Assembly: GCA_963663545.1 (NCBI GenBank)
Contig: OY760505.1
Location: 1,477,937 to 1,541,936 of the forward strand
Direction: 5' to 3'
Origin: Candidatus Delongbacteria bacterium
GTDB taxonomy: Bacteria; CAIWAD01
Length of the DNA: 64,000 bases
Each line of letters starts with the position of its first letter. The first letter of the stretch is position 1. This document shows, one piece after another, positions 1 through 64,000 of this stretch. A model generated the notes under the pieces. It did not search any database. It was not told the DNA's origin and saw only the letters and a program-made list of their open reading frames with translations. Both the position numbers and the translations under genes were made by a program.

Positions 1-1305
1 CTCGGGACTGTGACAATGGGCACAGCTCTCGCTCGGATTCGCAAGGGTTTCCAGCGCAGCGCCCTCTGACTTCACGTGAGCACTTCCCGGCCCGTGACAC
101 GCTTCGCACTGCACGTTGTACAATTGCGGTGTATCACGGCGATTGATATATCCTGATTCGACCATATAGCCCGTGACACAGCGGCGCAGCGCGCTCTCAT
201 CATCAGATCTGCGGTCGCGAATCAAGTCGCTGAATGCACGAGCGTGCAGCGTCGACTTGTAAGCCTGATGCACTTCACGATGGCAGTTGCGGCATTCGCT
301 TTCACCGACAAAGGTGTACTTGCTGTCGTGCCACGGCAGAGTGCGCTCATCCAGATTCAGCTCGGATAGGCGCTCCTGGCGGTTGCGCTCAATCTCACGC
401 TTCTTCTCACGCTCCTGCTCACCCTTGAAGTCTTCCATCATCTGGGCAACTTCAGGATTACGCGGCATGTCGTGATCCAGCTTGATCAGCACGAATTTGC
501 TGTCAACGATCCGTTTTTCCCTGTTCAACAACAACTCGAAGCGCGCTATGTGACGGCCACGATCACCGCAATTGCCGACGTAGGTCTCGCCTACGCGACG
601 CGAAGTGTTCCAGGGATTCGCCACTCCTCCCAACATGACCACGTCAACCTCAGGAACCCGGCTGATGAGGTCTTCAGGAGTACGATTGCTGGTATGAGCC
701 AACATGACCAAGACATCGCACTTGCGACGGAATCGACGGACCGCTTCCTCCAGGTCGTCGGTAACACGGCTACTGTCCATGCCGTTGGACGGGTAAGTCG
801 GATCAGCCCAGGTGAAGACGCCGACCTTGATTCCGTCGACCTTGTGCACAGAGAAATCACGCACGGTCTTGGGAACAACGCCCTGTCTATAATTAGAACC
901 GACCCAGTCGAAGTTGGAGCGCTTGATCATCGGAGTAAGAACCGAATCCGGTAGCATGACGTCCTTGGGACCAAGCCCGATGACGTCATAATCCTGACGA
1001 TTCATAATGTCGATGATAAAACCCGCCTCGCGATCCTGTTCTTCGCCCCGCTTCATACTGTGCAGGTTACCCGCGTCAAGCAACATCATGTGCTTGCCGA
1101 ACATGGCACGCAAAGAGTCCACAACGTAAGTACGCCGGGCAAGACCGCCCAGCTTCTTGTTGTGTCAACCACAATCCTCGAGATAGCCCTTGCAATCGGA
1201 AGTAAACACCAAAGCCAGATCATAGCTGTCGCGCGAAGGCGTACAACTCGTCAGGCTTAGCAGCAGGGCTATCAGGGCAAGCAATCCAAGCAGCGTATTG
1301 CGCAT
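1..1305 (-). CDS. Lipoprotein with a degenerate 5'-nucleotidase/metallophosphoesterase-like N-domain fused to a multiheme cytochrome c; paralog of the next gene. The C-terminus runs off the window, and there is an in-frame TGA at 1165-1167 (possible pseudogene or Sec recoding).
   Basis: Hand translation of the reverse strand starts at ATG 1303-1305 (MRNTLLGLLALIALLLSLTSC, lipobox LTSC) with an AAGGAG RBS upstream. It is homologous throughout to ORF 1515..2891 and carries CRNCH, CEACH and CAHCH heme motifs. The reading frame is continuous except for the TGA at 1165-1167. Confidence 0.6.
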
Positions 1306-1365
1306 GTTGCCCTCATCTCCTTAAAACACTATGCCGAAGTACTCTTCGGCGCCAACACGTCATTC

Positions 1366-1377
1366 ATCCATATGGAT
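1366..1377. promoter_or_regulatory. 12-bp perfect palindrome ATCCATATGGAT upstream of the first cytochrome-lipoprotein gene
   Basis: The palindrome lies about 60 nt upstream of start codon 1305. A GCCGAAG-tact-CTTCGGC hairpin at 1333-1350 lies in the 5'UTR. Confidence 0.35.
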
Positions 1378-1514
1378 ATGGATAAGACTCGGAATATACG
1401 CCAATCACAAAGCAGACACAAGCGAATTCTCATACAGTATTTCGCGTTACACCGAAGAGGTTAACGCTGCGAGGAAAACAACGAGCATCACTCCAATCTG
1501 CTTCGTAATATCAG

Positions 1515-2891
1515 CTACTTACTAAGCATCGACAGTGGGGGAACGCGATGCAAGCCAGCGTCCAAATCTCCATCGACAGTAAATGCGTTAACGTCGTGAC
1601 ATGTTCCGCAGGATTGCCAGGGATCGGCCAAGGTCCCCGTCTCTCCACCATTAGCGTCTACGTGAGCACTTCCCGGGCCATGGCAAGCCTCACATTGGAC
1701 GTTGTAAAGCCAGCTGGAACTGCGATCCACATAGCCGCCACGTACCAGGTAGCCCGTGACACAGCGGCGAAGCTCTGATGGGTTTTCCTCTTCTCCTGAT
1801 CGTAATAGGGCCGCGTAAGCTGTAGCATGGGGAGTTGCTTCGAATGCCGCATAGATACCGGCGTGACACTCCTTGCAGGCACGGGCTCCCAGAAAGAAGT
1901 GCTTCGCGTCATGATAGAGCAAGGCTGTCTCATCCAAATCCAGCTCAGTCAGGATCTGCTGCCGTTTTGCTTCTTGCGCCTCGCGACGCTGAACTCGCAC
2001 CTCTTGTTTGAATTCGCGAATACGTCGGGCCGTCACGGAATCCTCAGGAAGACCCGGCTCCACGGGAATCAGCACGTACTTCGAAGAGCTGATGCGCTTC
2101 TCGCGCGTCAACTCCAACTCGAAACGGCCGATGTACTGGCCGCGATCTCCGCAATTGCCGACCAGCATGCCATCCAGATTAGATTCGCTCATGACCGGAA
2201 AGCCTACACCTCCAAGCAGCACAACGTCTGCGCCCGCCGCCTGCTTCAAGAAGACCTCGGGATGTAACACGTCAGTGTACACGATCAGTACCAACACGTC
2301 GCATTCCCGGCGCACGCGAATGATCTGCTCATGCAGATTTCCCTCAAGGTCGTTGTGGCCAAGCGCGCCGTGTTCCCAATTTGGGTCTATCCAGTTCAAC
2401 ACCGTGATACGTAGGCCGTTGATTCGCTCGTGACACACCTGTTCAACCTGGGAGGGAATTGTATCACGACGATAGTTCGACCCCAGCCAGGGGATTTCCG
2501 ATTGCTTCACCAATGGACGAAGGAGACTGTCTGGAAGTACGGCATCCAGCGGTCCGAGACCGATCAGGCTATATCCCTGCTGCTCAAGAATCCTCTCCAT
2601 CAGCAATGCTGACTGCTGCGCCTCTAGGTCGGTGTTGCTTCCGTGTAGATTGCCAGTATGAATCAGCAGCATCTCTTCGCCCATCTCCCGGCGCAGACTA
2701 TCCAGGATATAGCTGTGTCGCGCCAGGCCGCCCAGTTTGCCGCTATCGAAATCGCAGCTTTCCAGATATCCCTTGCTGTCGGAACTGAACGCCACAACGA
2801 GCCTGTATGAATCCGGTGTATCACGACATCCCGATAGAACAGCGGCAATCAGCCCGAGCAGGATCAGCGAGAGATGCGCCGTACGCTTCAT
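1515..2891 (-). CDS. Lipoprotein with a pseudo-5'-nucleotidase (UshA-like metallophosphatase fold whose metal ligands are lost) N-domain and a C-terminal tri-heme cytochrome c domain.
   Basis: 458 aa with signal peptide plus lipobox LSGC. It aligns to the ushA-like ORF 32470..33927, but D-x-H is replaced by D-x-K, GD by GN and GNHE by GLGP. It has three CxxCH motifs (CKECH, CEACH, CGTCH). Confidence 0.7.
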   Translation of the reverse strand: MKRTAHLSLILLGLIAAVLSGCRDTPDSYRLVVAFSSDSKGYLESCDFDSGKLGGLARHSYILDSLRREMGEEMLLIHTGNLHGSNTDLEAQQSALLMERILEQQGYSLIGLGPLDAVLPDSLLRPLVKQSEIPWLGSNYRRDTIPSQVEQVCHERINGLRITVLNWIDPNWEHGALGHNDLEGNLHEQIIRVRRECDVLVLIVYTDVLHPEVFLKQAAGADVVLLGGVGFPVMSESNLDGMLVGNCGDRGQYIGRFELELTREKRISSSKYVLIPVEPGLPEDSVTARRIREFKQEVRVQRREAQEAKRQQILTELDLDETALLYHDAKHFFLGARACKECHAGIYAAFEATPHATAYAALLRSGEEENPSELRRCVTGYLVRGGYVDRSSSWLYNVQCEACHGPGSAHVDANGGETGTLADPWQSCGTCHDVNAFTVDGDLDAGLHRVPPLSMLSK

Positions 2892-3553
2892 TCGTCCTCC
2901 AAGGCAGACGATTGTGATCCGCCTTCGTCACGCATATCGCACAGCAGAGCGATGAACTCACTCAGCACGTTGGCGGTCATTCCCCAGACAGTAGCTCCTG
3001 GAAGGTCAAAATCCCAACCGGGAGTAATGGGAAACCACGGCTCTACCGGCTCGCCCGCAACTTGCCGGAAAATGCGCGAATAGCGCCGCCTGTTGGCACA
3101 CTTGGCCAACTCAGCCAAGCTCGGCAGCAGAACTTCATCCGTTTCTTCTGTCAGAATGTGTGGCCGCAGGTCACTGGCTAACAGGCCCGCTACCGGAGTG
3201 ACCAGGTTCTGTGATACAGGCACCCATTGATCACTCAGCATCCCGAGTAGCTCCACATCCTTCGGCGGAATCCCTAGTTCCTCCTGCGCTTCGCGAAGAG
3301 CAATGGCCACAGCGTCGCCATCGCCTTCTTCTTCACGCCCACCGGGAAGTGCGATCTGCCCCGGATGGTGTTCCAAGGCGGCTCCGCGGCGCACCAGCCA
3401 AAGATGTAACACGCCATTTGTATCAAACTGAAAGGGAAGCAACACAGCTGCACGATGCGCGCCTTCAATACTGAGGCGCCTGGATTGGTGCTCAGTAAAG
3501 AGTGCACGTAGCCAGTCGGCATCGACACGCTCCGGCAAACGCAGCCCTACCAA
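2888..3553 (-). CDS. NUDIX hydrolase, CoA pyrophosphatase (NudL)-like
   Basis: NUDIX box LPGGREEEGDGDAVAIALREAQEELG. The stop and start overlap the downstream cytochrome gene by 4 nt (ATGA). Confidence 0.7.
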   Translation of the reverse strand: MVGLRLPERVDADWLRALFTEHQSRRLSIEGAHRAAVLLPFQFDTNGVLHLWLVRRGAALEHHPGQIALPGGREEEGDGDAVAIALREAQEELGIPPKDVELLGMLSDQWVPVSQNLVTPVAGLLASDLRPHILTEETDEVLLPSLAELAKCANRRRYSRIFRQVAGEPVEPWFPITPGWDFDLPGATVWGMTANVLSEFIALLCDMRDEGGSQSSALEDE

Positions 3554-5769
3554 TCTGTTCCCTGATCGTGGCGCTGCACGCGTATCACCTCTTTCACTTG
3601 ACGCAGGCGTTTGAGTACCGTGGTAAGTTGAGCCAGGTTTTTTACATCGAGGATAATGCGACCAATGGCAAGTTCATCTTGCCGGCGCATGTTGAACTGC
3701 AGGATATTGACATCGAGTTTGGCCAGCACTTCGGCCACGTCATGCAGCAGGTTTCGCCGGTCCGAAGCAACAAGAATGATGCGGGCGTTGAACTGCTGAT
3801 CGCGACTGGCATCCCATTCCACCTCAACAATGCGCTCGGGTTGACTAAGCAGCTGGTTGATGTTGGGACAGGTCCGCCGGTGAACCTTGACGCCCTTACC
3901 TGTAACGATCAGGCCAATGATATCGTCACCGGGGACGGGCTGGCAACACTTCGAAAAGTGAATCACCATGTTGCTCATGCCGTGCACACGTACCGCGCTT
4001 GGATTGCGATCCTGCTTGTCGCCGCGGCGAAAAATGCGCATCAGCAGGCTTTCGGGGCGTGCCGGAGTCTCTGCGGGATCCAGCTTGCCGATCACATTGC
4101 CAACAGGAAGGTCACCGTTACCAATAGCCACGTAAAGCGCCTGCGCACTGCGGAAGCCCATACTTTGGGCCAGATCCTCCAGATCCACCGTCCTTAAGGT
4201 GATCGAACGCCGTCCGCACTCCTTGCGCAACACTTCCTCGCCCAACTCCAGACTCTGTTGCCACTGGCTCTCGCGCAACCAGCGTTTGATGCGCGAGCGT
4301 GCCTTGTGCGTGCGCACAATTTTCAGCCAGTCGAGAGTCGGCGTTTGCTTCTTGGAGGTAATCACCTCTACTGTGCAGCCGCTGGTGAGTTCGTAGTTCA
4401 GCGGTACGATGTGGGCATTTACCTTTGCGCCGATGCAATGCAGACCGACACTGGTATGCACGGCAAAAGCAAAATCGATAGGCGTGCTCCCGGCAGGCAG
4501 CTTGAAGAGATCACCTTTTGGCGTAAAGACGAAGATGTCGTCTTGGTAGAGGTTGATTTTCAGGCCTTCGAGGAATTCCTGATTGCTGCTGTCGTAGCTG
4601 TCCTCATCCAACACCTGCTTGATCCAGGTGGAAATGCGGTCGAGTTGCTCGTCGGTGCGGTCGCCGCCTTCCTTGTACAGCCAGTGCGCGGCAAGTCCGT
4701 ACTCGGCGACACGGTTCATCTCTTCGGTGCGAATCTGCACTTCAAGGGTTCGTCCACGCGGACCAACAACCTTGGTGTGCAAGCTCTGGTAGCCGTTCGA
4801 CTTGGGAGCCGCGATGTAATCCGAGAAGCGATCCGTGATGGGCGTGTAAATGTTGTGTACTACACCTAGCGCGAAATAGCAATCGCTTACCGTCGGCACA
4901 ATAACACGCACAGCAAACAGGTCGAGGATCTCCTCGAAGCTCTTGTTGCGCTTATGAATCTTGTGATACACAGAGTAGAAGTGCTTCGGCCTGCCGAAGA
5001 TGCGAAAGGTCTTGCCGTATTCCTCGAGCTTGCTGCGAAGTGGCGCGACGGCCTCTTCGATTACATCTTCGCGTTCGCCGTACTTGAGGTTGATGCGCTC
5101 TTCGAGATCGCGGTAAAATTCCGGTTCGAGCACTTTCAGCGAGAGGTCTTCCAACTCCCACTTGATGGAGCCAATACCAAAACGGTGCGCTAGGGGCGCG
5201 TAGAGCTCAATTGTCTCACGGGCGATGCGCTCGGCCTTGGCGTGTGACAGCGCATCAATGGTGCGCATGTTATGGAGTCGGTCGGCGAACTTGACGAAGA
5301 TGACGCGTATGTCCTGCGCCATCGATAAGAGCATCTTGCGATAATTCTCGCTCTGCTGATGCTCGAAGCTCTGGAATTTGAGGCCGCTGAGTTTTGTCAC
5401 ACCGTTGACAATAACCGCAACCTGATCGCCGAACTGCTCTTGCAGATTCGCCAGACTTGCTCCGCGATCCGCACTATCCTCTACTACGTCGTGCAAAAGA
5501 CTGGCAATCAGCGTGTCCTGATCCATCTTCAGACCGACCAGAATGCGCATCACCTGCACAGGATGCTCGATGTAGGGTTCGCCGGACTTGCGAGCTTGTC
5601 CCTCATGCATCTGCCAGGCGTAGTCGAATGCCTGTAGTACTTGCTCATCGCTAAGTGCTGGCGAGTACTCACGCGCCTGTACAAGCAACTCCTCGATCTC
5701 GCTACGGTAGTGGTCGTAGTTGAGAGTTGTATCACGGGGCGGATTACTGTGCTTCACAAGTTTCGGCAT
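3547..5769 (-). CDS. relA: Bifunctional (p)ppGpp synthetase/hydrolase RelA/SpoT (Rel)
   Basis: 740 aa with an HD hydrolase motif HDVVEDS, the synthetase motif RFSDYIAAPKSNGYQSLHT, and TGS and ACT C-terminal regions. Confidence 0.9.
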   Translation of the reverse strand: MPKLVKHSNPPRDTTLNYDHYRSEIEELLVQAREYSPALSDEQVLQAFDYAWQMHEGQARKSGEPYIEHPVQVMRILVGLKMDQDTLIASLLHDVVEDSADRGASLANLQEQFGDQVAVIVNGVTKLSGLKFQSFEHQQSENYRKMLLSMAQDIRVIFVKFADRLHNMRTIDALSHAKAERIARETIELYAPLAHRFGIGSIKWELEDLSLKVLEPEFYRDLEERINLKYGEREDVIEEAVAPLRSKLEEYGKTFRIFGRPKHFYSVYHKIHKRNKSFEEILDLFAVRVIVPTVSDCYFALGVVHNIYTPITDRFSDYIAAPKSNGYQSLHTKVVGPRGRTLEVQIRTEEMNRVAEYGLAAHWLYKEGGDRTDEQLDRISTWIKQVLDEDSYDSSNQEFLEGLKINLYQDDIFVFTPKGDLFKLPAGSTPIDFAFAVHTSVGLHCIGAKVNAHIVPLNYELTSGCTVEVITSKKQTPTLDWLKIVRTHKARSRIKRWLRESQWQQSLELGEEVLRKECGRRSITLRTVDLEDLAQSMGFRSAQALYVAIGNGDLPVGNVIGKLDPAETPARPESLLMRIFRRGDKQDRNPSAVRVHGMSNMVIHFSKCCQPVPGDDIIGLIVTGKGVKVHRRTCPNINQLLSQPERIVEVEWDASRDQQFNARIILVASDRRNLLHDVAEVLAKLDVNILQFNMRRQDELAIGRIILDVKNLAQLTTVLKRLRQVKEVIRVQRHDQGTDW

Positions 5770-5786: not shown

Positions 5787-7235
5787 TTAGAAGGGCGAAT
5801 CGTCCTCAGCAAAACGACTTCCCGCGTGTCTGATTTCCGGCGGAATTTCTTCGTGCGATCCCGCTCCGGGCGGCGGATCTCCGGCATTGTAATCGACCTC
5901 GGAGAAGCGGCCACTGCTCTTGTCGAAGTGCAAGGTGACAATGCCTGTGGGACCATTACGATGCTTGCCCACAATGACTTCCGCCTTTCCTTCATTGCTG
6001 TTGCCCTCAGCGTCAGTGGCCGAGTACATCTCAGGACGATACACGAAGACCACAAGGTCAGCATCCTGTTCAATGGCGCCTGAATCGCGTAGATCGGAAA
6101 GCATCGGCCGCTTGTCACCGCCACGCTGCTCAACCATTCGACTTAGCTGCGAAAGCGCAATGATAGGAACATGCAACTCTTTGGCGAGCGCTTTGATGGA
6201 TTTGGAAACCATCGCAACACCCAGCTGGTGATTGTCGGCCTTTGGAATCTGCATCAACTGCAGGTAGTCGAGTACAATCAACTTGATTCCATACTGTGAC
6301 ACAGCACGCCTGGACTTACTGCGCATCTCGGCCATGGATAAGCCAGGTGTTTCATCGATGTAAATCTTGTAATCGGTGAGACGTATCACAGCTTCCTGCA
6401 CACGTCCCCACTCAGCACCGTAGAGTTTCTTGGTGCGGATGCGCTTTCCCTCAACACCAGAGAGGCGGCTGATCAGGCGGTAGGCAAGCTGGTCCGCTGA
6501 CATTTCCAGGCTGAAGAATAGCACACCGTGGCCACGCTCCGCTGCGTTAAGTGCAAAGTTCAATGCTAGCGCGGTCTTGCCCATCGAGGGCCGCGCAGCC
6601 AGAATAATCATATCAGAGGGCTGAAAACCACTGGTCATCTCATCCAGACGATTGAAGCCGGTTGGGACGCCGAGTAGTTCATGCTCTTCACTGCTGTCCA
6701 GATGCTCCATCGTCTGGTGCATCAGGCTGGACAAGGCAATCAGATCCTTGCGATCCGTGCTGTTGCCTAGTGAGAAAAACGCGCTTTCTGCCTCGTTCAG
6801 CAAGTCAGCGGGATCAGTTCCGGGCGTATAGGCGTTTTCCAGAATACCCGAACTTGCCTGTATCACACGGCGCAAGAGCGCTCGATCGCGAACGATGCCT
6901 GCGTGATACTCGGCATTGGCAGCGCTGTCCACGTATACCGATAGCGCTTGCAGGTATTCCAGCCCACCCGCTTCGCCAATGTAATCGCGTTTGCCACCGC
7001 TGGTCATCCGCTCCAGCTCCTGCTGGACCTGCAGATAATCCACCGGCTCGCCACGCTGCGCCAGATTCAAAATGGATTGATAAATGTGCTGATGAGAAAG
7101 GCTGTAAAAGTCCTCGCACTGCCCAAGGATCTGGACAACGGAATCCACCGCCGCACTGGAGATCAGCGCTGCGCCAAGCACACATTTCTCGGCTTCGTCG
7201 TGATGCGGAAGCAGGCGTCCCTGTTCGTCCTTCAT
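5787..7235 (-). CDS. dnaB: Replicative DNA helicase DnaB
   Basis: Walker A ARPSMGKTALALNFALNAA plus the DnaB N-terminal domain. It has a C-terminal extension of about 50 aa that is Pro/Gly-rich. Confidence 0.9.
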   Translation of the reverse strand: MKDEQGRLLPHHDEAEKCVLGAALISSAAVDSVVQILGQCEDFYSLSHQHIYQSILNLAQRGEPVDYLQVQQELERMTSGGKRDYIGEAGGLEYLQALSVYVDSAANAEYHAGIVRDRALLRRVIQASSGILENAYTPGTDPADLLNEAESAFFSLGNSTDRKDLIALSSLMHQTMEHLDSSEEHELLGVPTGFNRLDEMTSGFQPSDMIILAARPSMGKTALALNFALNAAERGHGVLFFSLEMSADQLAYRLISRLSGVEGKRIRTKKLYGAEWGRVQEAVIRLTDYKIYIDETPGLSMAEMRSKSRRAVSQYGIKLIVLDYLQLMQIPKADNHQLGVAMVSKSIKALAKELHVPIIALSQLSRMVEQRGGDKRPMLSDLRDSGAIEQDADLVVFVYRPEMYSATDAEGNSNEGKAEVIVGKHRNGPTGIVTLHFDKSSGRFSEVDYNAGDPPPGAGSHEEIPPEIRHAGSRFAEDDSPF

Positions 7236-11161: not shown

Positions 11162-11170
11162 ATCACCACC

Positions 11171-54598: not shown

Positions 54599-54625
54599 TC
54601 TGCATTTGTATCACAATTCAAGAGC

Positions 54626-54656: not shown

Positions 54657-54673
54657 GTATCACAATCAATCGA

Positions 54674-55804: not shown

Positions 55805-56754
55805 CACTCGCTGTTTTTGAGACTGCTCCGCGGAATCAGACAACGCATGTTGACTTCACGTCCGCTGTCCTTGAACTGCAGCGTGTACTCGTGGCGTCCC
55901 TCGGGCACTTCGATGTAGAAGACGTCGCCCTTGCCGGGCACGCTGTCCCGTTTCTCGTCATATTCGGCCACATCGCTGCGCTGGCTCTCGAGCACGTAGG
56001 TGTTCTTCAGCTTGCCGTCTTCAAAGGCCTTGATCATGTAGCGCTGACGGCCACTCATGGTGGTGTTCCAGTCGAGACGGGCAATGACCTTCATGAAGGT
56101 CGGGCCGATCACGTTCACCTTGATGTCTTCGCCGGTGCGCAGCGCGTAATACGGAACGCTTGACTCGTGAACGACCACATTGCGAATGCCTTTGTGGATA
56201 TGCGGCACGATGTCAATGTTCTGACCACGCGGAATCGGGTTGACGTACTGTTTGCGCATGCGCAGATAGACGGTCTCGGCGGCGCCTTCGCCCAGTTCGA
56301 TGCGAACACGATGAGTTCCGGGACCAATTTTGATCACGTCGTCGCGGCTGACCGAAAGCTTGGCGCCTTCGCCCTGCAGGCGCGCCGTGCGCGAACGCGC
56401 GATGCTGTGCCGCAGTGTCTTGGCGTTTTCGCCATCCACCGTGTAAGTGAAGCTGTAGCGCTTGCCCTTTACCCGGCGCTCATAGGGAACGCGGCTGTAG
56501 ATTTTGATTTCCGCCGGGCCATTCAGTTCGAACTCGGCGGCGTGGGAAGCGTCCAGCTCATAGTAGCTGCGCACTTTGCCTTCCACCTCGACCTTCTGGC
56601 GACGGCTGTTCTGCGGGCGTAGGCTGGTCCAGGCCGCCAGCGCTTCTCCCGCCATCAACACCACGACCAGAGTCGCGACGAAAGCGGGGAGCAGGCGGCC
56701 AAAGCTTCGTGAGGTGGGATCAGAACTCGTTCTCTGCTTCATGGGAGAATCCAT
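55804..56754 (-). CDS. Hypothetical periplasmic or membrane-anchored protein
   Basis: 316 aa with an N-terminal TM/signal; tightly packed within the operon. Confidence 0.45.
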   Translation of the reverse strand: MDSPMKQRTSSDPTSRSFGRLLPAFVATLVVVLMAGEALAAWTSLRPQNSRRQKVEVEGKVRSYYELDASHAAEFELNGPAEIKIYSRVPYERRVKGKRYSFTYTVDGENAKTLRHSIARSRTARLQGEGAKLSVSRDDVIKIGPGTHRVRIELGEGAAETVYLRMRKQYVNPIPRGQNIDIVPHIHKGIRNVVVHESSVPYYALRTGEDIKVNVIGPTFMKVIARLDWNTTMSGRQRYMIKAFEDGKLKNTYVLESQRSDVAEYDEKRDSVPGKGDVFYIEVPEGRHEYTLQFKDSGREVNMRCLIPRSSLKNSE

Positions 56755-56762
56755 TCCTTAAC

Positions 56763-57905
56763 TCAAATCATGTCGTCGGGATCGGCATTCGCTTCGCGCA
56801 GCTGTTGCAGCCGCAGATCAAAACGAATGACCACCAGTACAAGCACCGTCATGATCAGCACGGCAACGAGCACAACACGCAGATCGTAACGCTCTGTGAC
56901 GAAAGTTGCACCATCGCCGGGCTCGGGAACCGCATTGAAGCGCAGGGGCAGACCATTGTCCTGCAGCAGCTTCTCAAAAAGGTGATTGCGGTACTTCAAG
57001 TTGATTACCGGCACGTTGTGGCGACTGAAGTAATGAATCACGCCCTCACGGGGATAATTCATCGGCTGAACGTGCTTGATGACACCCAGCGGAAGCAGCT
57101 GCCCATTCTCCACATGCCCCAAGCTGGCAACACCGCCGCCAATATTGAGGAAGGTGCCATAGCCGGCGGGCGAACCCTTGAGCTGCTCGGTGAACAAGTC
57201 AACGCGAATGCGAATGGCATCATCGACCGAAGGCGGGTTCAGATAGGGCACATCATTGCGCTCAACGGCCTGGCGCAAGAGCGCGCGGCCTTCGGGCGGC
57301 AGACTGCGACCGCGATCGTCCGCACCTCCGGCGCTGGCGGCGATGCTCTTGTAGTCGAAGAGCCCCGACTCACGCAGCGCGGCTTCCATGTCAAGCCAGG
57401 TGAAGAGCGGATCGGTGGCCCCGTACCAGGAGGAGCTGACCGAGGTAATGATCACCGGATCGATGCCCATTATCTTGCAGGCCGAGAATGCCGCCAGGTT
57501 CAGCGCGGGAAAGGAACCCGACACGCACATGGCCAACTTGTCGCCTCGCTCCAGGCCTGCATCGTAGAAGAGGTCGACCATCATCGCCGCTGTGTTGGGA
57601 TTGACCGTCATCAGCTTAGCAGCATGGTTGCCCTCGAGGGTGGTGATCAGCGTGTTCTTCTGGCCCACAAGCATAGTGGCGAAGGGATCGTTGATCTCGT
57701 CGGCAATGGCGGCTTCGGGCGCGGAACTCTCGCGCAGCACGTCCATGCCCTGCAGCATCAATTCCGCAGCCGCCAACTTCTCATCATAATGCGGCTGACG
57801 GGCGTCAACGCGACTGTACTCGGCCCAATTGTAGAGGCCGTACGCAACAATGGCCAGGACCAGCAAGGTCCAGTTGGACTTCAGACTAGGCTTAAACATG
57901 GGCAA
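56763..57905 (-). CDS. Poly-gamma-glutamate system protein (PgsA-substitute family, TIGR04332-like)
   Basis: 380 aa with N- and C-terminal TM segments; immediately downstream of pgsB and pgsC and overlapping them. Confidence 0.5.
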   Translation of the reverse strand: MPMFKPSLKSNWTLLVLAIVAYGLYNWAEYSRVDARQPHYDEKLAAAELMLQGMDVLRESSAPEAAIADEINDPFATMLVGQKNTLITTLEGNHAAKLMTVNPNTAAMMVDLFYDAGLERGDKLAMCVSGSFPALNLAAFSACKIMGIDPVIITSVSSSWYGATDPLFTWLDMEAALRESGLFDYKSIAASAGGADDRGRSLPPEGRALLRQAVERNDVPYLNPPSVDDAIRIRVDLFTEQLKGSPAGYGTFLNIGGGVASLGHVENGQLLPLGVIKHVQPMNYPREGVIHYFSRHNVPVINLKYRNHLFEKLLQDNGLPLRFNAVPEPGDGATFVTERYDLRVVLVAVLIMTVLVLVVIRFDLRLQQLREANADPDDMI

Positions 57906-58347
57906 TCAACTCCCCGCCGGTGACGAGCATCATCAGCAAGCGAACGCAAGAGGCCACCAGCAACAGGCACATCAGGGTTTTGAAGACGCCCTGCTTGTCC
58001 ATCCAGTTGGCAATTAGGCCGGGGATAATGAATCCAACAGCCTGAAACTGCAGATCAACGCCAAAGGTGTCGTAGAAAATCGCCTGACGCGAAAAGTAAC
58101 CCATTACAAATCCCAGCAGAATGCAGAGGATCAGGCGGCGGCGTCCGTAGATAAACATGAAGGAGCTCAGACCGCGCACGATACCGAAAGTGATAAAGCT
58201 GACCAGGAAGGTTCCCAGCAGGCGCGTGGGCTCATGCATCTGCAGGGCCACATAGCCGGGGACCACGAGTCCGCCCGCGCTGACACCCACAACCTCCTGG
58301 AACACCATACTCAGGATGACTCCCAGGCCCACAGAGATCTCAATCAC
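57892..58347 (-). CDS. pgsC: Poly-gamma-glutamate biosynthesis protein PgsC/CapC
   Basis: 151 aa integral membrane protein; CapC-like sequence (MIEISVGLGVILS...GFIIPGLIANW). Confidence 0.75.
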   Translation of the reverse strand: MIEISVGLGVILSMVFQEVVGVSAGGLVVPGYVALQMHEPTRLLGTFLVSFITFGIVRGLSSFMFIYGRRRLILCILLGFVMGYFSRQAIFYDTFGVDLQFQAVGFIIPGLIANWMDKQGVFKTLMCLLLVASCVRLLMMLVTGGELIAHV

Positions 58348-59510
58348 GAACGGCTCCTTTCCTGGAAGTAATGTGCAACTTCATGTCCGCCTCCGTGGAC
58401 GTTGCCGATGCCGTAGACGCCCATCTTGTGGAAGGGCAGCTGGGCAATAGTGTTGTAGACGACTTCGGGATAGACCAGACCGAGGCCGATGACCTTATCC
58501 GGCTTCATCCCCAGTTTCCAGCAGTAGGTCAGCAGGCGATCGGTACTTTCTCCGATGAGCACCAGCCGCTCGTACTGCGTATTCTCGTGCACCATTTCTA
58601 CTAGCTGCAGACTGCGCTCGTAGCGATCCTGCCGCGTGTTGAGCATAAAGATGGTCGCACCCGGATTTTCCTCGTGGGCGATCACGCGTTCCCAGATGGC
58701 CAGCGTGCTCTCCGGGTCGTTTGCCGCCAGCGCATTGACGAATACCAGTTCCTTGCCCTCGTGATTCACGCGATGCAGCTGCAGAGCGCCGCAATCAGGC
58801 CGCGCCTTCAACATGCCACGCAGCGCCGTATCACGATCGATACCAAGCTCGGCGGCAACGGCCATGGCCAGGGCGACATTCTCCTTGTGCTCGATGTAAC
58901 CGAACTGGCGCATGTCCTCGTCGGTCACGACCGCATCGGTCACTTCGTGCAGCATGGTGCCACGCTTGCCGGCGACTTTCTGCATCAGCCCGATCAGCTT
59001 GTGCTCGCAGGTGTAAGCCACCTTGTTGCTGGGCAGGCTGTTGCACAAACTGCGTGCGACATTCTGCACCGTCGGCCCCATTTCGCGCAGGTGGTCGGGA
59101 CGCGCATTCGTAATGACGCCGATGGTCGAATGCACCATGCGATGCTCAGCAACCCACTGATACTCCGGCATTACCGCCATGCACTCAATCACCATTGCCT
59201 GCGGTTTGCGCTTTGCCGCGAAGGCAAACACACGCACCTGTTCAATGATGTTGGCGCCGCGCGCGCGATAGATGGGAATCTCTCGCCCGTCTTCCAGAAG
59301 CACCCGAGGAGCGCTACCGGTGGTTTTGGCGATGGTTCGGATTCCACCCTCGCACAATGCGCCGTGGATCAATCGCGTTACACTTGATTTCCCGCGGGTG
59401 CCATTGACGTGAATGCGATGAGGAATCGAGTGGATGACCGAGTAATGTCGGCGTAGTTCGTAGATGCCCAGCAGGATGAGCGCCAGGACAAGACAAACGA
59501 TGATCAGCAT
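58344..59510 (-). CDS. pgsB: Poly-gamma-glutamate synthase PgsB/CapB (Mur ligase family)
   Basis: N-terminal TM, ATP-binding motif HVNGTRGKSSVTRLI, 388 aa. Confidence 0.8.
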   Translation of the reverse strand: MLIIVCLVLALILLGIYELRRHYSVIHSIPHRIHVNGTRGKSSVTRLIHGALCEGGIRTIAKTTGSAPRVLLEDGREIPIYRARGANIIEQVRVFAFAAKRKPQAMVIECMAVMPEYQWVAEHRMVHSTIGVITNARPDHLREMGPTVQNVARSLCNSLPSNKVAYTCEHKLIGLMQKVAGKRGTMLHEVTDAVVTDEDMRQFGYIEHKENVALAMAVAAELGIDRDTALRGMLKARPDCGALQLHRVNHEGKELVFVNALAANDPESTLAIWERVIAHEENPGATIFMLNTRQDRYERSLQLVEMVHENTQYERLVLIGESTDRLLTYCWKLGMKPDKVIGLGLVYPEVVYNTIAQLPFHKMGVYGIGNVHGGGHEVAHYFQERSRS

Positions 59511-59856
59511 AGTTGGTTGGACGATATCCCGTCGAACCCCTGCGGGTGCAGAAGGTCGACATTCACATTTCTTTTGACACCGCTACCGAAGGTTGGCGAT
59601 GTAGTTTTCAATAGACAAGCAGCCGCTTCGCTTCTCATGCGAAAAACGAAAGCCGTTTTAATGCAGAAATTGCGCCAGAACACGAATTGCATCCTCGCCT
59701 TCGTCAAAGCTTCTATTCAAGCCCATCTCGGCCCATTGCGGCCTGGAAAAGGCAATTCGGACTGTCTGAAGAAACTCTCACAACTGATAAATCCCGCACA
59801 CTGCGTATAGCGCGCTTTTCACACCGCACAGCGGGTGGGGTTCAACTCGCGAAGAG

Positions 59857-60576
59857 CTAATCCTCCAGGAAGTACTCAACGGTGTTCACGACGCGCACGA
59901 CCTTCAGCTCGGGGCTATTACGATCGCGCTCGTCTATGGAGAAAAGGCCCTGGCTTGCACGGCGGATGCGCCCGACCTCGGATCCCGAATCGTGGGCGAA
60001 CTGCTCGGCGGCGTCGCGTGCGTTCAGCGTTGCCTGGGCAATCATCTCAGGCTTGATGGCATTCAGGCCAGTAAAAAGGAACTCGGTAGGGTTCTCCCAA
60101 GACTGGTTGGTCAGTGCGATCCCTTGCCCCACAAGACTCGGCGTCTGCTCCATCGCCTGGCGCACCAGGTCCACTTTTTGTGTACGCGTTGTCACAACAC
60201 CCTGGGCGCGATAGCGGAACTGGGGTGCATTATCTCGTGAGCCGTAGAACTCGGCGCGCGTATCCTGAATCTGCGGCGAGGGCATGCTGATGTCGGCGCG
60301 TTCGAAGCCCATTTTCGTGAGGAATCCCACAATCAGTTCGCGTTGATGGTCGATTTCTCGCTGCAAGCTTTGTAGGTCGTTATCTGTGACGACAAAGCTG
60401 ATGGGCCAGATGGCCAGATCGGCTTGCACTTCGCGCTCCGCCAGCCCTTTGACGGTCACGAAGCGATCTCCGCTGCGACTTGCCTTGAAGCCCTGCCCCA
60501 CCAACAATCCTGCTAGCGCGATTCCGACCGCGACAAGCAGAGCGGGCACGATCAGGGAACGATGCTCAGATAGCAT
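59857..60576 (-). CDS. SIMPL-domain (DUF541/YggE-like) protein
   Basis: Single N-terminal TM followed by a SIMPL-like domain; the start is at the internal Met (MLSEHRSL). Confidence 0.55.
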   Translation of the reverse strand: MLSEHRSLIVPALLVAVGIALAGLLVGQGFKASRSGDRFVTVKGLAEREVQADLAIWPISFVVTDNDLQSLQREIDHQRELIVGFLTKMGFERADISMPSPQIQDTRAEFYGSRDNAPQFRYRAQGVVTTRTQKVDLVRQAMEQTPSLVGQGIALTNQSWENPTEFLFTGLNAIKPEMIAQATLNARDAAEQFAHDSGSEVGRIRRASQGLFSIDERDRNSPELKVVRVVNTVEYFLED

Positions 60577-60699
60577 GATATCCTCCGTTTCGGCATGCAA
60601 AACACCCGCACACAATGTAGCAAGAGCGTAGCGGCACAAGGACCCCGGACTACGGCCTTGCCGTGGCAATTGTACCTTACGGCAAACACGGGAGGAAGC

Positions 60700-61674
60700 A
60701 TGAGCACAGAGCGCGGACGCGTGCTGGTTACCGGAGCGAGTGGTTTCATTGGCTCGCATCTGGCCGAAAGCCTTCTAGCAAGCGGAAAAGAGGTTCGCCT
60801 CTTTTTGCGCTACAGCTCCCTTCCCGTGGAACAGCTTCTTCCTGAAGCCTTGCGGGCCTGCGAGGCAGTGCGCGGCGATATTCGCGATAGCGCAGCGCTA
60901 CTCCGGGCGATGGAGGGCATGGACACCGTGTATCACCTGGCAGCACTCGTGGGTATCCCATACAGCTACGAATGTCCGGCGGAGGTATTCTCGGTCAATG
61001 CTGCTGGAACTGCGGCTGTCCTGGATGCCGCGCTGAAGTGCGATGTGTCACGCCTTGTACTGACTTCCACCAGCGAAGTCTACGGCAGTGCTCAAACAGT
61101 GCCCATTCGCGAAGATCATCCGCTTAACGCGCAATCTCCCTACGCCGCAAGCAAGGTGGCCGCCGACCAGTTGGGGCTTTCCTACCATCGCAGCTTCGGG
61201 CTTCCCGTAGCCATACTGCGCCCCTTCAACACCTACGGACCGAGACAGAGTGCACGCGCTGTGATACCGACCGTGATACAACAGGCGTTGACCGGCAAGG
61301 AAATTCTGCTTGGTACGACAAGCAGTACGCGCGATTTTAGCTACGTGCAGGATACGGTGGATGCATTTATTGCAGCAGGTTCAAGTCCCGAAGCCGTAGG
61401 CTGTATCACGCAGACGGGAAGCGGCCGCGAAGTCAGCATCGGTGATTTGGTACAGATGGTAGGGCGAATTCTAGCGCGCGATCTAATGATTGTGTCACGC
61501 GATGAGCGACTTCGTCCACAGGCCAGCGAAGTGCAACGCCTCATCTGCGATGCTACGCTCGCAAAAGAGCGTCTTGGCTGGAGCAGCAGGGTCAGCCTGG
61601 AAGAAGGTCTGGCACGAACCATTGACTGGCTGCGTGATCATCCACAGCATCTGGGCAAGGGCTATCAACGGTAA
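60700..61674 (+). CDS. NAD-dependent epimerase/dehydratase (extended SDR family)
   Basis: VLVTGASGFIGSHL Rossmann motif and YAASK catalytic motif. GGAGGA RBS upstream of ATG 60700. Confidence 0.8.
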   Translation: MSTERGRVLVTGASGFIGSHLAESLLASGKEVRLFLRYSSLPVEQLLPEALRACEAVRGDIRDSAALLRAMEGMDTVYHLAALVGIPYSYECPAEVFSVNAAGTAAVLDAALKCDVSRLVLTSTSEVYGSAQTVPIREDHPLNAQSPYAASKVAADQLGLSYHRSFGLPVAILRPFNTYGPRQSARAVIPTVIQQALTGKEILLGTTSSTRDFSYVQDTVDAFIAAGSSPEAVGCITQTGSGREVSIGDLVQMVGRILARDLMIVSRDERLRPQASEVQRLICDATLAKERLGWSSRVSLEEGLARTIDWLRDHPQHLGKGYQR

Positions 61675-61681: not shown

Positions 61682-62131
61682 GTGATACAAGCTGAAATCG
61701 ACATCCAATCCATCCTGCAGGAGCTTGATCCGGGCCCCGGCTATGAGCTGGTTGGTGTCGGGATTGATGTGGAAGAATTGGAACGTTTGCAGGAAGTAAT
61801 GGCGCGTCGGCCCCGATTCATTCAACGTTGGTTCAGTAAGCCCGAGCAAATGCAGGTTGAGTCAGCAATTGTTCCCGCCGCTGATGCACTGTTTCGCTTC
61901 TGCCTGAAAGAGGCTGTAATCAAGGCTTGTTGGCCTGAAGTTCAACTCACTCCCGCACAAGTCGATACTAGCGATTGCGGCATAGAGCAGGTCTGCGAAC
62001 CACGTATCACAAAAAGCGCCAACTCGCTGTTTGTCTATGCCAAATGTCGATTTGATGTGGATCACGCCTTGGCGTGGGCTGTGTGTTACAACGGGGCGAA
62101 GCAAGTCTCCGCCCCGTCGCATGGTGTCTAA
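61682..62131 (+). CDS. 4'-phosphopantetheinyl transferase (AcpS-like)
   Basis: GVGIDVEELERL motif. The start is probably GTG 61682, just after the epimerase stop. Confidence 0.55.
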   Translation: MIQAEIDIQSILQELDPGPGYELVGVGIDVEELERLQEVMARRPRFIQRWFSKPEQMQVESAIVPAADALFRFCLKEAVIKACWPEVQLTPAQVDTSDCGIEQVCEPRITKSANSLFVYAKCRFDVDHALAWAVCYNGAKQVSAPSHGV

Positions 62132-63510
62132 CTGAAGTTCAACGTGGCGTTGTGTTTGGGTTTGTGTGATGCAAACCCTGGCCGTCCCATACCGCCGTAG
62201 GTCAGAACTTTACCCGCTTCCACACCAGGCTGATCAAAAGTATTGATGCCCATCAGCTCACCGTTGATAAAGGTCTCCAGCATAAAGAACTGGAAGAGCT
62301 GTCCCAGGTAGTAGGCGTCTACTTTGGGTAGTACCAGCGTGCGTGATCCACGACCGGCCTCCAAAAGCGCTTCCGCGGTGGATTCCTGCTCAACATTAAT
62401 CAGGCGCCCCATTTCCTGTCCGCCCAGATAAGCAACGGCGTCGTGCTGGACGAACTCCTTGCCGATGGGGCAGGGTTTGCGGAACTCATTGACGCGAATG
62501 AAGCTCACCAGCTTGTCTGTCGGACCTTCCATGAAGAGCTGCAGCAGACTATGCTGATCTGCGGCCCCAAGGGCACCCAGCGGCGTTGAGCCACTGTACA
62601 CGACTTCACCGGCGTTGTTGTACTTCTTACCCAGGCTTTCTCCCCAGAGCTGCACATACCAGTTGGCGACAAAGCGCAGTGCGCGCGCATAGGGCATGAC
62701 CACATTCACACTGTGGTTGTTGCGGAACCAATCCCAAGCCATGACACTTGCGGTCATTACGCGGTTCTGTTCAAGCGAAGTCTCGGCTGTATCACGCGTG
62801 ATATCCTCAGCACCGGATAAGAGCGCCCGGATATCGAGTCCCAGCATGGCTGCCGGAAACAGGCCAACCGCAGATAGCAACGAAAAGCGACCGCCCGTCT
62901 TGGGCGGAATGGGTAGCACGGCAATCTGCTCTTCGCGACCGATGCGCTGCAGAAGGCCGTCGCCGTCATCGGTAGTCAACACGAAGTGCTGGTTCCACGT
63001 ATCACCAAGCGTCCTGCGAAAGTGATCGGCCACGCTCATAAAATTCGCCGCCGTCTCCGCCGTCGTGCCCGATTTACTGACAACGTTCACAAGAGTCTTG
63101 GCAGGGTCAAGCTGCTCCAGCACTTCCGTCAGCGCGTCGGGATCGCTGTTGTCAAGGAAGTGAAAACGCGGGCGACCGGCACGAACACCTTCCAGCTCGT
63201 TCCAGGCACTGTGACACAAGGCAGCCTGAATAGCGATGGTCCCCCAAGTGCTGCCGCCGATGCCAATCAGCAGGAAGTCCGAAAAACGTCCTTCCAGGCG
63301 AGCAACGAGCTCCTCAACGGTCTTCACTTCGGGACGTAAAAATGTATTCGCAAAGGTGCCGGTGTCACTGGCCACCATTTGCGACAATCTCTGCTGAATC
63401 TGCTGTAGAGCTTCACGCTGCTCGGCCACAAGTCCGGAGCGCACCCCGGTACCTTCCGGCAGGTTCTCCTTCAGCATTCGGGTCAAATCAATCTGGATCA
63501 GGTTCGGCAT
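62128..63510 (-). CDS. pgi: Glucose-6-phosphate isomerase
   Basis: PGI motifs (GGRFSLLSAVGLFPAAMLG, FLDNSDPD); 460 aa. Confidence 0.85.
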   Translation of the reverse strand: MPNLIQIDLTRMLKENLPEGTGVRSGLVAEQREALQQIQQRLSQMVASDTGTFANTFLRPEVKTVEELVARLEGRFSDFLLIGIGGSTWGTIAIQAALCHSAWNELEGVRAGRPRFHFLDNSDPDALTEVLEQLDPAKTLVNVVSKSGTTAETAANFMSVADHFRRTLGDTWNQHFVLTTDDGDGLLQRIGREEQIAVLPIPPKTGGRFSLLSAVGLFPAAMLGLDIRALLSGAEDITRDTAETSLEQNRVMTASVMAWDWFRNNHSVNVVMPYARALRFVANWYVQLWGESLGKKYNNAGEVVYSGSTPLGALGAADQHSLLQLFMEGPTDKLVSFIRVNEFRKPCPIGKEFVQHDAVAYLGGQEMGRLINVEQESTAEALLEAGRGSRTLVLPKVDAYYLGQLFQFFMLETFINGELMGINTFDQPGVEAGKVLTYGGMGRPGFASHKPKHNATLNFS

Positions 63511-63520
63511 GGATCCTCCA

Positions 63521-63550
63521 ACAAAGAAAAAGCCACCTGCTTCAGGTGGC
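63521..63550 (-). terminator. Rho-independent terminator
   Basis: GCCACCTG-ctt-CAGGTGGC hairpin followed on the minus strand by a T-run. Confidence 0.55.
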
Positions 63551-63688
63551 GTTAACTGTCAACAACGCAGTCGAAGCTCTCACCGACAAAAGTATGAAAG
63601 GCTCCCTAGCACAAAACTGCACTGTGCAAACCCCCAGCGGCTTGCACGAATGACAAGCTAATCAAGCCTGCGACTGTGGGCGAAGATA

Positions 63689-63853
63689 TTACTTCTTAGG
63701 CTGCTTGTTCTCGTTCGGCAGAATCTTGTACATGCCAGCGCCACAATTGGGGCAGACTCCACGTACAGCGTTACGGCCATTCTTCATGGACAGTTTTACA
63801 ACGTCCTTCATCTCGCGGTGATCACGGCACCGCATGCAATATCCCTGATAGCT
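63689..63853 (-). CDS. Small zinc-ribbon protein
   Basis: 54 aa with CxxC...CxxC (CMRCRD...CPNCGAGM). Confidence 0.45.
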   Translation of the reverse strand, partial: SYQGYCMRCRDHREMKDVVKLSMKNGRNAVRGVCPNCGAGMYKILPNENKQPKK

Positions 63854-64000
63854 CATCTGACTCCTCCCGATGTTCACTACACGAATATGGAAAGCTGAAT
63901 CCGCTTCGCGCAACAGAAAAGCAACGCGTTCAACAATCCTTCTTGCCTGTGTCCCTTCGCTTTGAAGCCGCTTGCATAGGTCGTTTGAAATAGAACACTA

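Follow-up and report, generated by a model that had tools for sequence, protein, structure and literature searches.

To our knowledge, only a handful of short words reach about one copy per kilobase in bacterial genomes, namely the uptake signal sequence (USS), the DNA uptake sequence (DUS) and the highly iterated palindrome HIP1. Each of these words started work on transformation, kin recognition or chromosome organization. In Neisseria, the minor pilin ComP is the sequence-specific DUS receptor. Chi of Escherichia coli occurs at about 0.2 copies per kilobase. Findlay and Redfield reported that the tripeptides encoded by USS and DUS are inflated, about a doubling, and that these words are absent from genes without homologs in relatives (PMC2817400). 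Xu et al. argued for selection on HIP1 from its conservation in and between open reading frames (ORFs), and the distribution of HIP1 is periodic at 10–90 kb (PMC5861425). Here we analyze the octamer GTGATACA, which is repeated throughout a 64,000-bp stretch of contig OY760505.1 from a Candidatus Delongbacteria bacterium; this whole stretch is referred to as the window. Hyper-iterated oligonucleotides as such are a known phenomenon; what is new here is the word, the phylum and a combination of USS-like with HIP1-like properties.

Results

Abundance of the octamer

The window contains 68 copies of GTGATACA or its reverse complement TGTATCAC, 34 on each strand, which corresponds to 1.06 copies per kb. 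The 7-mer core GTGATAC/GTATCAC occurs 93 times (47/46 by strand). A first-pass annotation made from the sequence by eye had put these numbers at about 64 and 84 (41/43 for the 7-mer); the abundance it described stands and the exact counts are higher. Its GC content of 59% was wrong, and the measured value is 55.9%. Dinucleotide shuffles of the window yield 1.10 ± 0.99 copies of the octamer with a maximum of 5, and Markov models of order 2, 3 and 4 predict 1.96, 3.3 and 7.3 copies, so that the excess holds against each background. The observed count is 35-fold above the second-order expectation, in agreement with the earlier estimate of 1–2 expected copies and a more than 30-fold excess, and inside the 15–300-fold range of HIP1-type words. 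GTGATACA ranks first among the over-represented 8-mers of the window, and its sub-words and extensions head every over-representation list from k = 6 to k = 10. All window counts cover 64 kb from one contig stretch.

A negative control was assembled from 80 unrelated metagenome contigs (831 kb) fetched around dnaB, with DnaB relatives of at most 48% identity. These contigs contain 6 copies of GTGATACA (0.007/kb), and the density in the window is about 150 times higher. The GC-matched subset of the control (50–62% GC, 270 kb) contains 4 copies. These data confirm that the hyper-abundance of GTGATACA is real. A search of about 8 million full-text papers found neither orientation of the octamer. 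Delongbacteria are mentioned in 21 of these papers, in passing and never in a title or abstract, with one or two uses of the name in each of the 15 listed.

Consensus and variants

The 93 copies of the 7-mer have C (40) or T (37) at position −1 more often than G (13) or A (3), and A (68) or G (18) at position +8 more often than C (5) or T (2). Flank composition is at background outside these two positions, and therefore the word is not part of a longer repeat element and is not confined to a single repeated element family. A dispersed repeat of the repetitive extragenic palindrome (REP) or miniature inverted-repeat transposable element (MITE) type was rejected on these flanks and because 93% of the copies lie inside ORFs. 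The 7-mer core lacking the 3' A accounts for 25 further copies, and 18 of these are GTGATACG. Three related words are also enriched in the window: GTGACAC/GTGTCAC (36 versus 7.4 expected), GTGTTAC (20 versus 3.1) and GTAATAC (7 versus 2.2). The whole variant family has 156 copies versus about 20 expected, an eightfold excess. Single-base changes of the core at positions 1, 2 and 7 give words that are rarer than expected (ATGATAC, 1 versus 6.2; GAGATAC, 1 versus 5.8; GTGATAG, 1 versus 4.9). These data give the working consensus Y-GTG-[A>T]-[T>C]-AC-[A>G]. The reverse complement of the octamer is a different word, so it is not a perfect palindrome. Its dyad symmetry is confined to the outer frame Y-GT-nnn-AC-R, and the center is asymmetric, with the asymmetric form strongly preferred.

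The dinucleotide TT precedes all six intergenic copies in the window. An extended consensus TTGTGATACAA was considered on this basis, but the TT preference was not replicated in the sister species described below and is a hint at most. A resemblance to a parS half-site (GTGAAACA compared to GTGATACA) was rejected, as the window has neither parS nor a 16-bp double site. The DnaA-box, CRP, IHF, SlmA and MatP sites are not known to match the word without an indel or several mismatches, and none would account for the intragenic copies.

Coding context of the octamer

Gene calls curated with Pfam and NCBIfam were used to determine how the copies are read in genes. The octamer uses all five stop-free combinations of frame and strand. 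The sense frames are GTG-ATA-CAn (12 copies) and nGT-GAT-ACA (16 copies), and the antisense frames are TGT-ATC-ACn (5 copies), nTG-TAT-CAC (16 copies) and nnT-GTA-TCA-Cnn (12 copies). This extends the earlier observation of copies in unrelated genes in at least three combinations. There is no bias with respect to transcription (28 same and 33 opposite), and the ORFs remain intact. Among the 100 peptide contexts able to encode the word synonymously, 60 carry it; the codon usage of the window predicts 5.5. The word forces rare codons: ATA (8% of Ile), TCA (10% of Ser), GTA (14% of Val) and ACA (22%). The first-pass list of such codons was right about ATA and ACA, missed TCA and GTA, and included CGT, which makes up 23% of Arg codons and is not rare. 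The 7-mer contains 26% of all ATA codons in the window. The encoded tripeptides are inflated 2–7 times over a shuffled proteome: VI[QH] occurs 19 times versus 4.4, [LMV]YH 17 versus 2.6, CIT 5 versus 0.7 and [SRGC]DT 30 versus 13.6.

The use of five frames, the overriding of codon choice and the retention of orthologous sites in the sister species (27 of 45) support the conclusion that GTGATACA is kept by a force acting on DNA, and not on the encoded proteins or RNA, as the first-pass annotation had proposed. A word of the opposite kind is found in a related contig. GACAGCCT occurs 12 times in contig L093 versus 0.8 expected, but all 12 copies are on the sense strand in one frame, where they read GAC AGC CTG (Asp-Ser-Leu), and they cluster in a TonB_C/BNR-like gene (10058–11519) and elsewhere. 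GACAGCCT is a peptide-level repeat, unlike GTGATACA.

Conservation in relatives

Type IX secretion system (T9SS) sorting domains and the best-named homologs, which are metagenome-assembled genomes labelled Candidatus Delongbacteria, place the window in an uncultured lineage of the Fibrobacterota–Chlorobiota–Bacteroidota (FCB) group. The sister species is represented by contig_23 of ENA ERZ21831093 (DnaB 91% and DNA about 76% identical), which was read over 61.8 kb (L005, L011 and L095). It has 44 copies of GTGATACA (0.71/kb), which is again the top 8-mer. L012, a 36-kb contig from a different sample, matches the window at 99.9% identity and has the same sites. A DnaB scan of genome contigs yielded distant relatives only, with at most 60% identity.

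Two alignments with contig_23 were used to compare orthologous positions. In 31.5 kb at 75% identity, 20 of 32 octamers are identical at the orthologous position versus 13.1% of other 8-mers (P = 1e-10), and the 7-mer is conserved at 30 of 44 sites versus 16.2% (P = 2e-14). In a separate 11.9 kb, the octamer is conserved at 7 of 13 sites versus 16.4% (P = 0.002) and the 7-mer at 11 of 18 versus 19.7%. Together, the alignments retain 27 of 45 octamer sites against a background of 13–16%. Positions within the word show an identity of 0.78–0.94, compared to about 0.7 for flanks of 30 nt. The three alignable intergenic copies (9712, 18472 and 49682) are all conserved. Among the variants, GTGATACG is conserved at 7 of 9 sites and GTGTTAC at 6 of 12; GTGACAC is conserved at 2 of 12 and faces GTGATAC in 5–6 of 12.

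Density was also compared in more distant syntenic relatives. Three of these (L007, L009 and L010; 66–68% GC) have no octamer and 0–1 copies of the 7-mer. Contigs L008 and L093 belong to one lineage (61–64% GC, 100% identical overlap) that has a weaker, shifted form, CGTGATAC, with 12 copies in 43 kb versus about 1.2 expected; GTGA[TC]AC occurs 16 times in L008 versus 3.0 ± 1.6 expected. Three of the 12 genic 7-mers of this lineage are orthologous to window copies. One is the RelA site GTG-ATA-CGC, where L007, L009 and L010 have ATC, and a second is the Omp85 site GTA-TCA-CC. Some sites have thus been kept at a protein identity of about 65%. L008 shares 71% identity with L007 and 65% with the window; the word therefore probably goes back to a common ancestor and disappeared from the GC-rich lineages. 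Comparison with motif-free relatives points to two origins of copies. Synonymous changes account for DnaB VIQ (ATC to ATA) and CoaBC CDT (TGC GAT ACT to TGT GAT ACA), and amino acid replacements for RelA (I-W-H to V-Y-H), NamZ (N-Q-E to C-I-T) and CoaBC (L-V-P-P to I-V-S-P). In L006 and L012, many genes are split (RelA, HtrA, PBP4 and PGM are in pieces) that are 99.3–99.9% identical to the intact versions; these splits are probably long-read indel errors and not pseudogenes.

Orientation and distribution

GC skew is negative in every 4-kb interval of the 64 kb, which places the whole window in one replichore. The absence of an overall strand skew had been noted before, and the 34:34 orientation is incompatible with a 75% skew (P = 8e-6). 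The orientation in the sister-species segment is 17:12. An equal orientation within one replichore excludes polar signals of the Chi type or of the FtsK-orienting polar sequence (KOPS) type, and with them the Chi-like or polar architectural role that the first-pass annotation had listed as a candidate. Spacing is clumped, with a coefficient of variation of 1.42 for the gaps between copies (P = 0.002) and a maximum gap of 7.3 kb (P = 0.02).

DNA of accessory character was compared to the core. Synteny between contig_23 and the window stops after a citrate-synthase-like gene. The next 9.1 kb of contig_23, with two transposases and 50% GC, contain 1 copy versus 14 in the preceding 12 kb of core (binomial P ~0.003). 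The genes of this island (L095 12001–21146) encode an AAA ATPase, a DDE_3 transposase, an acetyltransferase, a DUF4238 protein, a metallophosphatase and an IS110 transposase. In the window, genes with a third-position GC content (GC3) of at least 0.70 have 0.36 7-mers per kb versus 1.60 in the remaining genes, as would be expected if these genes were foreign or if codon selection acted more strongly there against ATA, GTA and TCA. The segment 54674–59510 encodes an outer-membrane beta-barrel protein, a hypothetical protein and a poly-gamma-glutamate operon (TIGR04332 system protein, CapC and a CapB-like ligase). Its GC3 is 0.73–0.75 versus about 0.6 elsewhere, and it has one octamer. Either acquisition at a later time or strong selection on codons would explain this, and horizontal transfer of the GC3-rich cap operon is possible. 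The hipBA/hipA module at 50610–51894, of the toxin-antitoxin type with a kinase domain and a HipA N-terminal-domain ORF, has 6 copies in 1.3 kb, the highest density in the window. It is non-syntenic, at the sister-species synteny break, and its density opposes the depletion seen in other accessory DNA.

The positions of the copies and of the copy-free blocks are collected in Table 1. The intergenic sites at 18472, 49682, 54607 and 54656 that had been named earlier are octamers, and the one at 42082 is a 7-mer copy. The copies at 54607 and 54656 flank a terminator as described, with the hairpin between them, but they are direct and not inverted. They are part of two direct copies of the 13-mer TTTGTATCACAAT (54603–54668) around the GC-rich hairpin, between two convergent genes. 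This pair could be a chance juxtaposition with favored flanks, or could reflect a hairpin insertion that duplicated a motif-bearing target.

Table 1. Octamer copies, octamer-free blocks and the motif-flanked hairpin in the window. 8-mer, a copy of GTGATACA; peptides are in one-letter code; the last column gives the state in the sister species (contig_23).
Feature	Position	Strand	Context	Sister species
8-mer	130..137	-	partial cytochrome c554 gene	same 8-mer at ortholog
8-mer	2460..2467	-	cyt c554, sense CGT GAT ACA (RDT)	
8-mer	2817..2824	-	cyt c554, RDT	
8-mer	3211..3218	+	NUDIX gene, antisense P-V-S-Q	absent
8-mer	4963..4970	+	RelA/SpoT, antisense GTG TAT CAC (VYH); motif-free relatives I-W-H/N/T	conserved
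8-mer	5728..5735	-	RelA/SpoT, RDT	conserved
8-mer	6859..6866	-	DnaB, GTG ATA CAG (VIQ); relatives ATC	conserved
8-mer	7285..7292	+	UDG, antisense LYH	absent
8-mer	7880..7887	-	UDG, VIH	
8-mer	8319..8326	-	CoaBC, TGT GAT ACA (CDT)	conserved
8-mer	8547..8554	+	CoaBC, antisense VYH	absent
8-mer	8954..8961	+	CoaBC, antisense ATT GTA TCA CCA (IVSP); relatives L-V/A-P-P	conserved
8-mer	9712..9719	-	intergenic	conserved
8-mer	14300..14307	+	NamZ, antisense CIT; L008 has NQE	conserved
8-mer	15160..15167	+	NamZ, antisense LYH	conserved
8-mer	15479..15486	-	NamZ ORF start (GTG ATA CAC)	conserved
8-mer	15862..15869	+	PBP4, antisense CIT	absent
8-mer	16059..16066	+	PBP4, antisense VYH	conserved
8-mer	16151..16158	+	PBP4, antisense NVSQ	GTGACACA
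8-mer	16867..16874	+	PBP4, antisense CIT	GTGATGCA
8-mer	17190..17197	-	GT2, VIQ	conserved
8-mer	18161..18168	-	GT2, RDT	absent
8-mer	18288..18295	-	GT2, VIH	conserved
8-mer	18472..18479	+	intergenic, upstream of GT2	conserved
8-mer	25818..25825	-	TonB_C/BNR protein, CDT	
8-mer	26349..26356	-	TonB_C/BNR protein, CDT	
8-mer	26771..26778	-	Omp85, RDT	absent
8-mer	27637..27644	+	Omp85, antisense GTA TCA CC (SVSP); L093 7-mer orthologous	GTGATACG
8-mer	27796..27803	+	Omp85, antisense RVSR	GTGATACG
8-mer	28371..28378	+	PNP, antisense LYH	conserved
8-mer	30506..30513	+	thymidine kinase, antisense VVSH	conserved
8-mer	32528..32535	-	5'-nucleotidase, VIQ	conserved
8-mer	32561..32568	-	5'-nucleotidase, VIH	absent
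8-mer	33045..33052	+	5'-nucleotidase, antisense FVSR	absent
8-mer	33166..33173	+	5'-nucleotidase, antisense LYH	conserved
8-mer	33224..33231	-	5'-nucleotidase, VIH	conserved
8-mer	35731..35738	-	LipA, GDT	conserved
8-mer	36589..36596	+	M13 peptidase, antisense LYH	
8-mer	37133..37140	-	M13 peptidase, VIH	
8-mer	37314..37321	+	M13 peptidase, antisense PVSR	
8-mer	38075..38082	+	M13 peptidase, antisense CIT	
8-mer	42154..42161	+	AraC/GyrI regulator, antisense MYH	conserved
8-mer	42394..42401	+	AraC/GyrI, antisense VYH	conserved
8-mer	42691..42698	-	AraC/GyrI, RDT	one base different
8-mer	43867..43874	-	NadE, antisense RVSR	conserved
8-mer	44780..44787	-	Lgt, antisense GVSL	absent
8-mer	45202..45209	-	Lgt, antisense MYH	conserved
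8-mer	45469..45476	-	Lgt, antisense LYH	absent
8-mer	47636..47643	+	S41 peptidase, GDT	absent
8-mer	48411..48418	+	HAD hydrolase, RDT	conserved
8-mer	48866..48873	-	Cys/Met pyridoxal phosphate (PLP) enzyme, antisense LVSR	conserved
8-mer	48921..48928	+	Cys/Met PLP enzyme, VIQ	not conserved
8-mer	49447..49454	+	Cys/Met PLP enzyme, RDT	not conserved
8-mer	49682..49689	+	intergenic	conserved
8-mer	50658..50665	+	HipA kinase domain, antisense MYH	
8-mer	50717..50724	+	HipA, antisense CVSR	
8-mer	51123..51130	+	HipA, antisense MYH	
8-mer	51348..51355	-	HipA, GDT	
8-mer	51412..51419	-	HipA, VIQ	
8-mer	51739..51746	+	HipA N-terminal-domain ORF, antisense VYH	
8-mer	54607..54614	-	intergenic; left direct TTTGTATCACAAT copy at terminator hairpin	
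8-mer	54656..54663	-	intergenic; right direct TTTGTATCACAAT copy	
8-mer	55325..55332	-	outer-membrane beta-barrel gene, RDT	
8-mer	60929..60936	-	GDP-mannose-dehydratase-like (GMD-like) gene, antisense VYH	
8-mer	61273..61280	+	GMD-like gene, VIQ	
8-mer	61402..61409	-	GMD-like gene, antisense CIT	
8-mer	61682..61689	+	directly past GMD-like stop, within long ORF call of ACPS gene	
8-mer	62788..62795	-	phosphoglucose isomerase, RDT	
8-mer-free block	9720..14299		omega, Gmk, YicC, sigma-70, HtrA, hypothetical; phylum-wide synteny	free
8-mer-free block	18480..25817		T9SS cargo, hypotheticals, DAO, part of TonB_C protein; L093 syntenic	free in L011 8704-18058
8-mer-free block	55333..60928		poly-gamma-glutamate operon (CapB/CapC/system protein, GC3 0.73-0.75) and SIMPL gene	
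bidirectional terminator-like hairpin	54629..54650		between two direct TTTGTATCACAAT copies	

Other features of the window were recorded. A nucleoside-salvage cluster at 27918–33927 encodes a purine/uridine phosphorylase, a Na+/nucleoside transporter, thymidine kinase, uridine kinase, cytidine deaminase, AMMECR1 and 5'-nucleotidase. Its gene order is kept in contig_23 and L093, and an import of DNA or nucleotides by the lineage, if it occurs, would give the cluster possible interest. A tandem pair of multihaem cytochrome c554-family genes occupies 1–2891, and one of the pair is cut by the start of the window. L007, L009 and L010 have such a pair as well, and contig_23 and L008 have a single gene. 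Rfam and ARAGORN detected one RNA gene in the window, a tRNA-Lys (anticodon TTT) at 38263–38335.

Discussion

Readings of the word

Forces of three kinds have been described for such words: molecular drive by biased uptake (USS and DUS), direct selection for a chromosomal binding site (proposed for HIP1) and biased repair linked to methylation. By analogy with USS and DUS, we tentatively propose that GTGATACA is a 'self' tag for uptake or recombination and that molecular drive maintains it, a reading that we consider possible but short of probable. A sequence-specific protein would read the consensus on double-stranded DNA, and a force acting on DNA would hold the word near one copy per kb across the whole resident chromosome of this Delongbacteria-like lineage. 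Fragments that bear the word would be preferred by the transformation machinery in binding and import, and homologous recombination would over-transmit alleles that create or keep it. Copies would then build up through synonymous and amino acid replacement changes wherever protein function tolerates them, and DNA recently arrived from outside the clade would hold few copies. We infer that uptake machinery is the reader, that the organism is competent and that drive prevails over direct selection. USS-like drive is favored by the asymmetry of the word, the inflation of its tripeptides, the existence of a dialect and the depletion in mobile DNA.

Several results weigh against this proposal. Intergenic copies number 5 of 68 by the more complete gene calls, compared to 6.3% of bases that are intergenic, so there is no non-coding excess; by contrast, only 65%, 49% and 34.5% of USS and DUS copies lie in ORFs (PMC2817400). 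Uptake sequences, DUS above all, often form terminators as inverted pairs; the window has no inverted motif pairs at terminators, and its sole motif-flanked terminator has direct copies. No competence, pilus or DNA-receptor genes are among the Pfam and NCBIfam gene calls of the 64 kb. The octamer-free blocks at 9.7–14.3 kb and 18.5–25.8 kb (4.6 and 7.3 kb) are made up of ancestral genes in conserved order and lack copies in both species, which simple drive does not predict. Recent horizontal transfer was rejected as their origin on account of this shared lack of copies and of their phylum-wide synteny. The first block has no peptide able to encode the word. The conservation of sites fits direct selection equally well. 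Direct selection is favored by the lack of an intergenic or terminator excess, by the copy-free blocks inherited in both species and by single sites that are conserved over very deep divergence, and sequence alone does not decide between drive and direct selection.

Direct selection would make GTGATACA the binding site of an abundant chromosomal protein with a role in nucleoid organization, segregation or repair. As has been proposed for HIP1, each copy would bring a weak benefit and be kept by purifying selection. We regard this explanation, the main rival of the uptake or recombination tag, as rather unlikely. Sites are conserved within and between ORFs in all frames, some of them across about 65% protein identity, and coding and non-coding DNA carry the word in proportion to their share. 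The copy-free blocks, unchanged in both species, imply a slow rate of gain. The partial dyad frame Y-GT-nnn-AC-R and the four pyrimidine-purine steps may resemble sites of DNA-bending proteins. However, no obvious DNA-binding candidate for the word was found in the 64-kb window, the spacing is clumped and not regular, and known selected octamers such as Chi, KOPS and the architecture-imparting sequences (AIMS) are far less enriched and strand-polar. The function of HIP1 is itself unresolved, so this explanation names a class and not a mechanism, and drive or residence time would account just as well for the depletion in mobile DNA. A methyltransferase coupled to a mismatch-specific nickase or to biased repair, resembling very short patch repair, could instead convert near-cognates into the word, a hypothesis also raised for HIP1. 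The enriched family, GT[G/A]-W-[C/T]AC, comprises the palindrome GTGWCAC and its single and double C-to-T products, and the exchange of GTGACAC and GTGATAC at 5–6 of 12 orthologous sites indicates a high C/T flux at position 5. Elhai ties HIP variants to orphan methyltransferases (PMC4390886). But a bias at one position cannot lift the whole family eightfold (156 versus about 20) or deplete the one-off variants at positions 1, 2 and 7, and GTGATAC is kept at 30 of 44 sites, whereas a mutational product would drift. The window has no methyltransferase or Vsr-like gene. We consider this mechanism improbable, and its simplest form, pure deamination of a methylated GTGWCAC, was rejected because it leaves the eightfold family excess and the conserved T form unexplained.

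The remaining alternatives fare worse. A recombination or anti-degradation signal for an enzyme of the RecBCD/AddAB type, or a polar signal of the KOPS/AIMS type, would be a non-palindromic octamer that is frequent in resident DNA and rare in mobile DNA, as observed. The equal orientation within one replichore, the 17:12 orientation in the sister segment, and an enrichment and density several times above any known Chi largely refute this idea, and we give it very little weight. An artifact or by-product, whether a protein or codon motif, a dispersed REP or MITE repeat or an assembly contaminant, is refuted. A peptide-driven word does exist nearby (GACAGCCT), but nothing favoring this origin for GTGATACA was left after the tests: it uses five frames on both strands, overrides codon usage, has no flank conservation past one base on each side, leaves ORFs intact and occupies the same sites in an independent assembly of the same strain and in a second species. 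The rest of the probability goes to something not yet described.

If the uptake or recombination tag is correct, sequence-selective natural transformation would exist in an uncultured phylum of the FCB group and would not be a proteobacterial oddity. A link to uptake would offer a practical handle for DNA delivery into an uncultured group. Within the comparison set, the word is strong in two species, weak in one lineage and missing from three, and phylogenetic profiling could reveal the reader protein. The word is strong enough to alter amino acids in proteins such as RelA, and it is a sharp marker for contig binning and foreign-DNA detection in the clade.

Comparison with known systems

By sequence, GTGATACA is outside the USS, DUS and HIP1 families. 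REP and MITE elements have tens of conserved bases and are mostly intergenic, unlike the window word with its background flanks and location in ORFs. Chi, KOPS and architecture-imparting octamers share with it the form of a non-palindromic octamer spread through the chromosome, but Chi and KOPS are strand-polar and few-fold enriched, whereas the window word is non-polar in one replichore and 20–60-fold enriched. HIP1 (GCGATCGC) and the HIP variants of cyanobacteria are closer. They are octamers enriched 15–300-fold and conserved in all frames and in non-coding DNA, they are not a peptide or RNA motif, their one-off variants are conserved too and the function of HIP1 is unknown (PMC5861425). 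HIP1 is a perfect palindrome with methyltransferase sites (GATC and CGATCG); the window word is asymmetric with a partial dyad frame, and no methyltransferase link is known for it.

The USS of Pasteurellaceae (core AAGTGCGGT) and the DUS of Neisseriaceae (GCCGTCTGAA and its dialects) are, like the window word, non-palindromic, present at about 1 copy per kb (9–10 bp and hundreds to thousands of copies per genome in their case) and equal on both strands, as the first-pass annotation had aptly noted for the density of these words and of HIP1. They also lie in genes in several frames, override codon usage, inflate tripeptides and are placed partly by amino acid replacement; orthologous sites are kept, a related dialect occurs in another lineage and copies are scarce in accessory and mobile DNA (PMC2817400, PMC3630211). 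The window word differs in having no core in common with AAGTGCGGT or GCCGTCTGAA, in belonging to another phylum, the uncultured Delongbacteria-like lineage of the FCB group, and in having conserved copy-free blocks of core genes with no intergenic or terminator excess and no inverted pairs. It may be a third, independently evolved uptake or 'self-recognition' word and the first outside Proteobacteria. Should it have no tie to uptake, it may instead define a class of signal that is new in being asymmetric, non-polar and spread over the chromosome. We advance this proposal with less than even confidence. The word joins the asymmetry and tripeptide inflation of USS to the proportional coding and non-coding distribution of HIP1.

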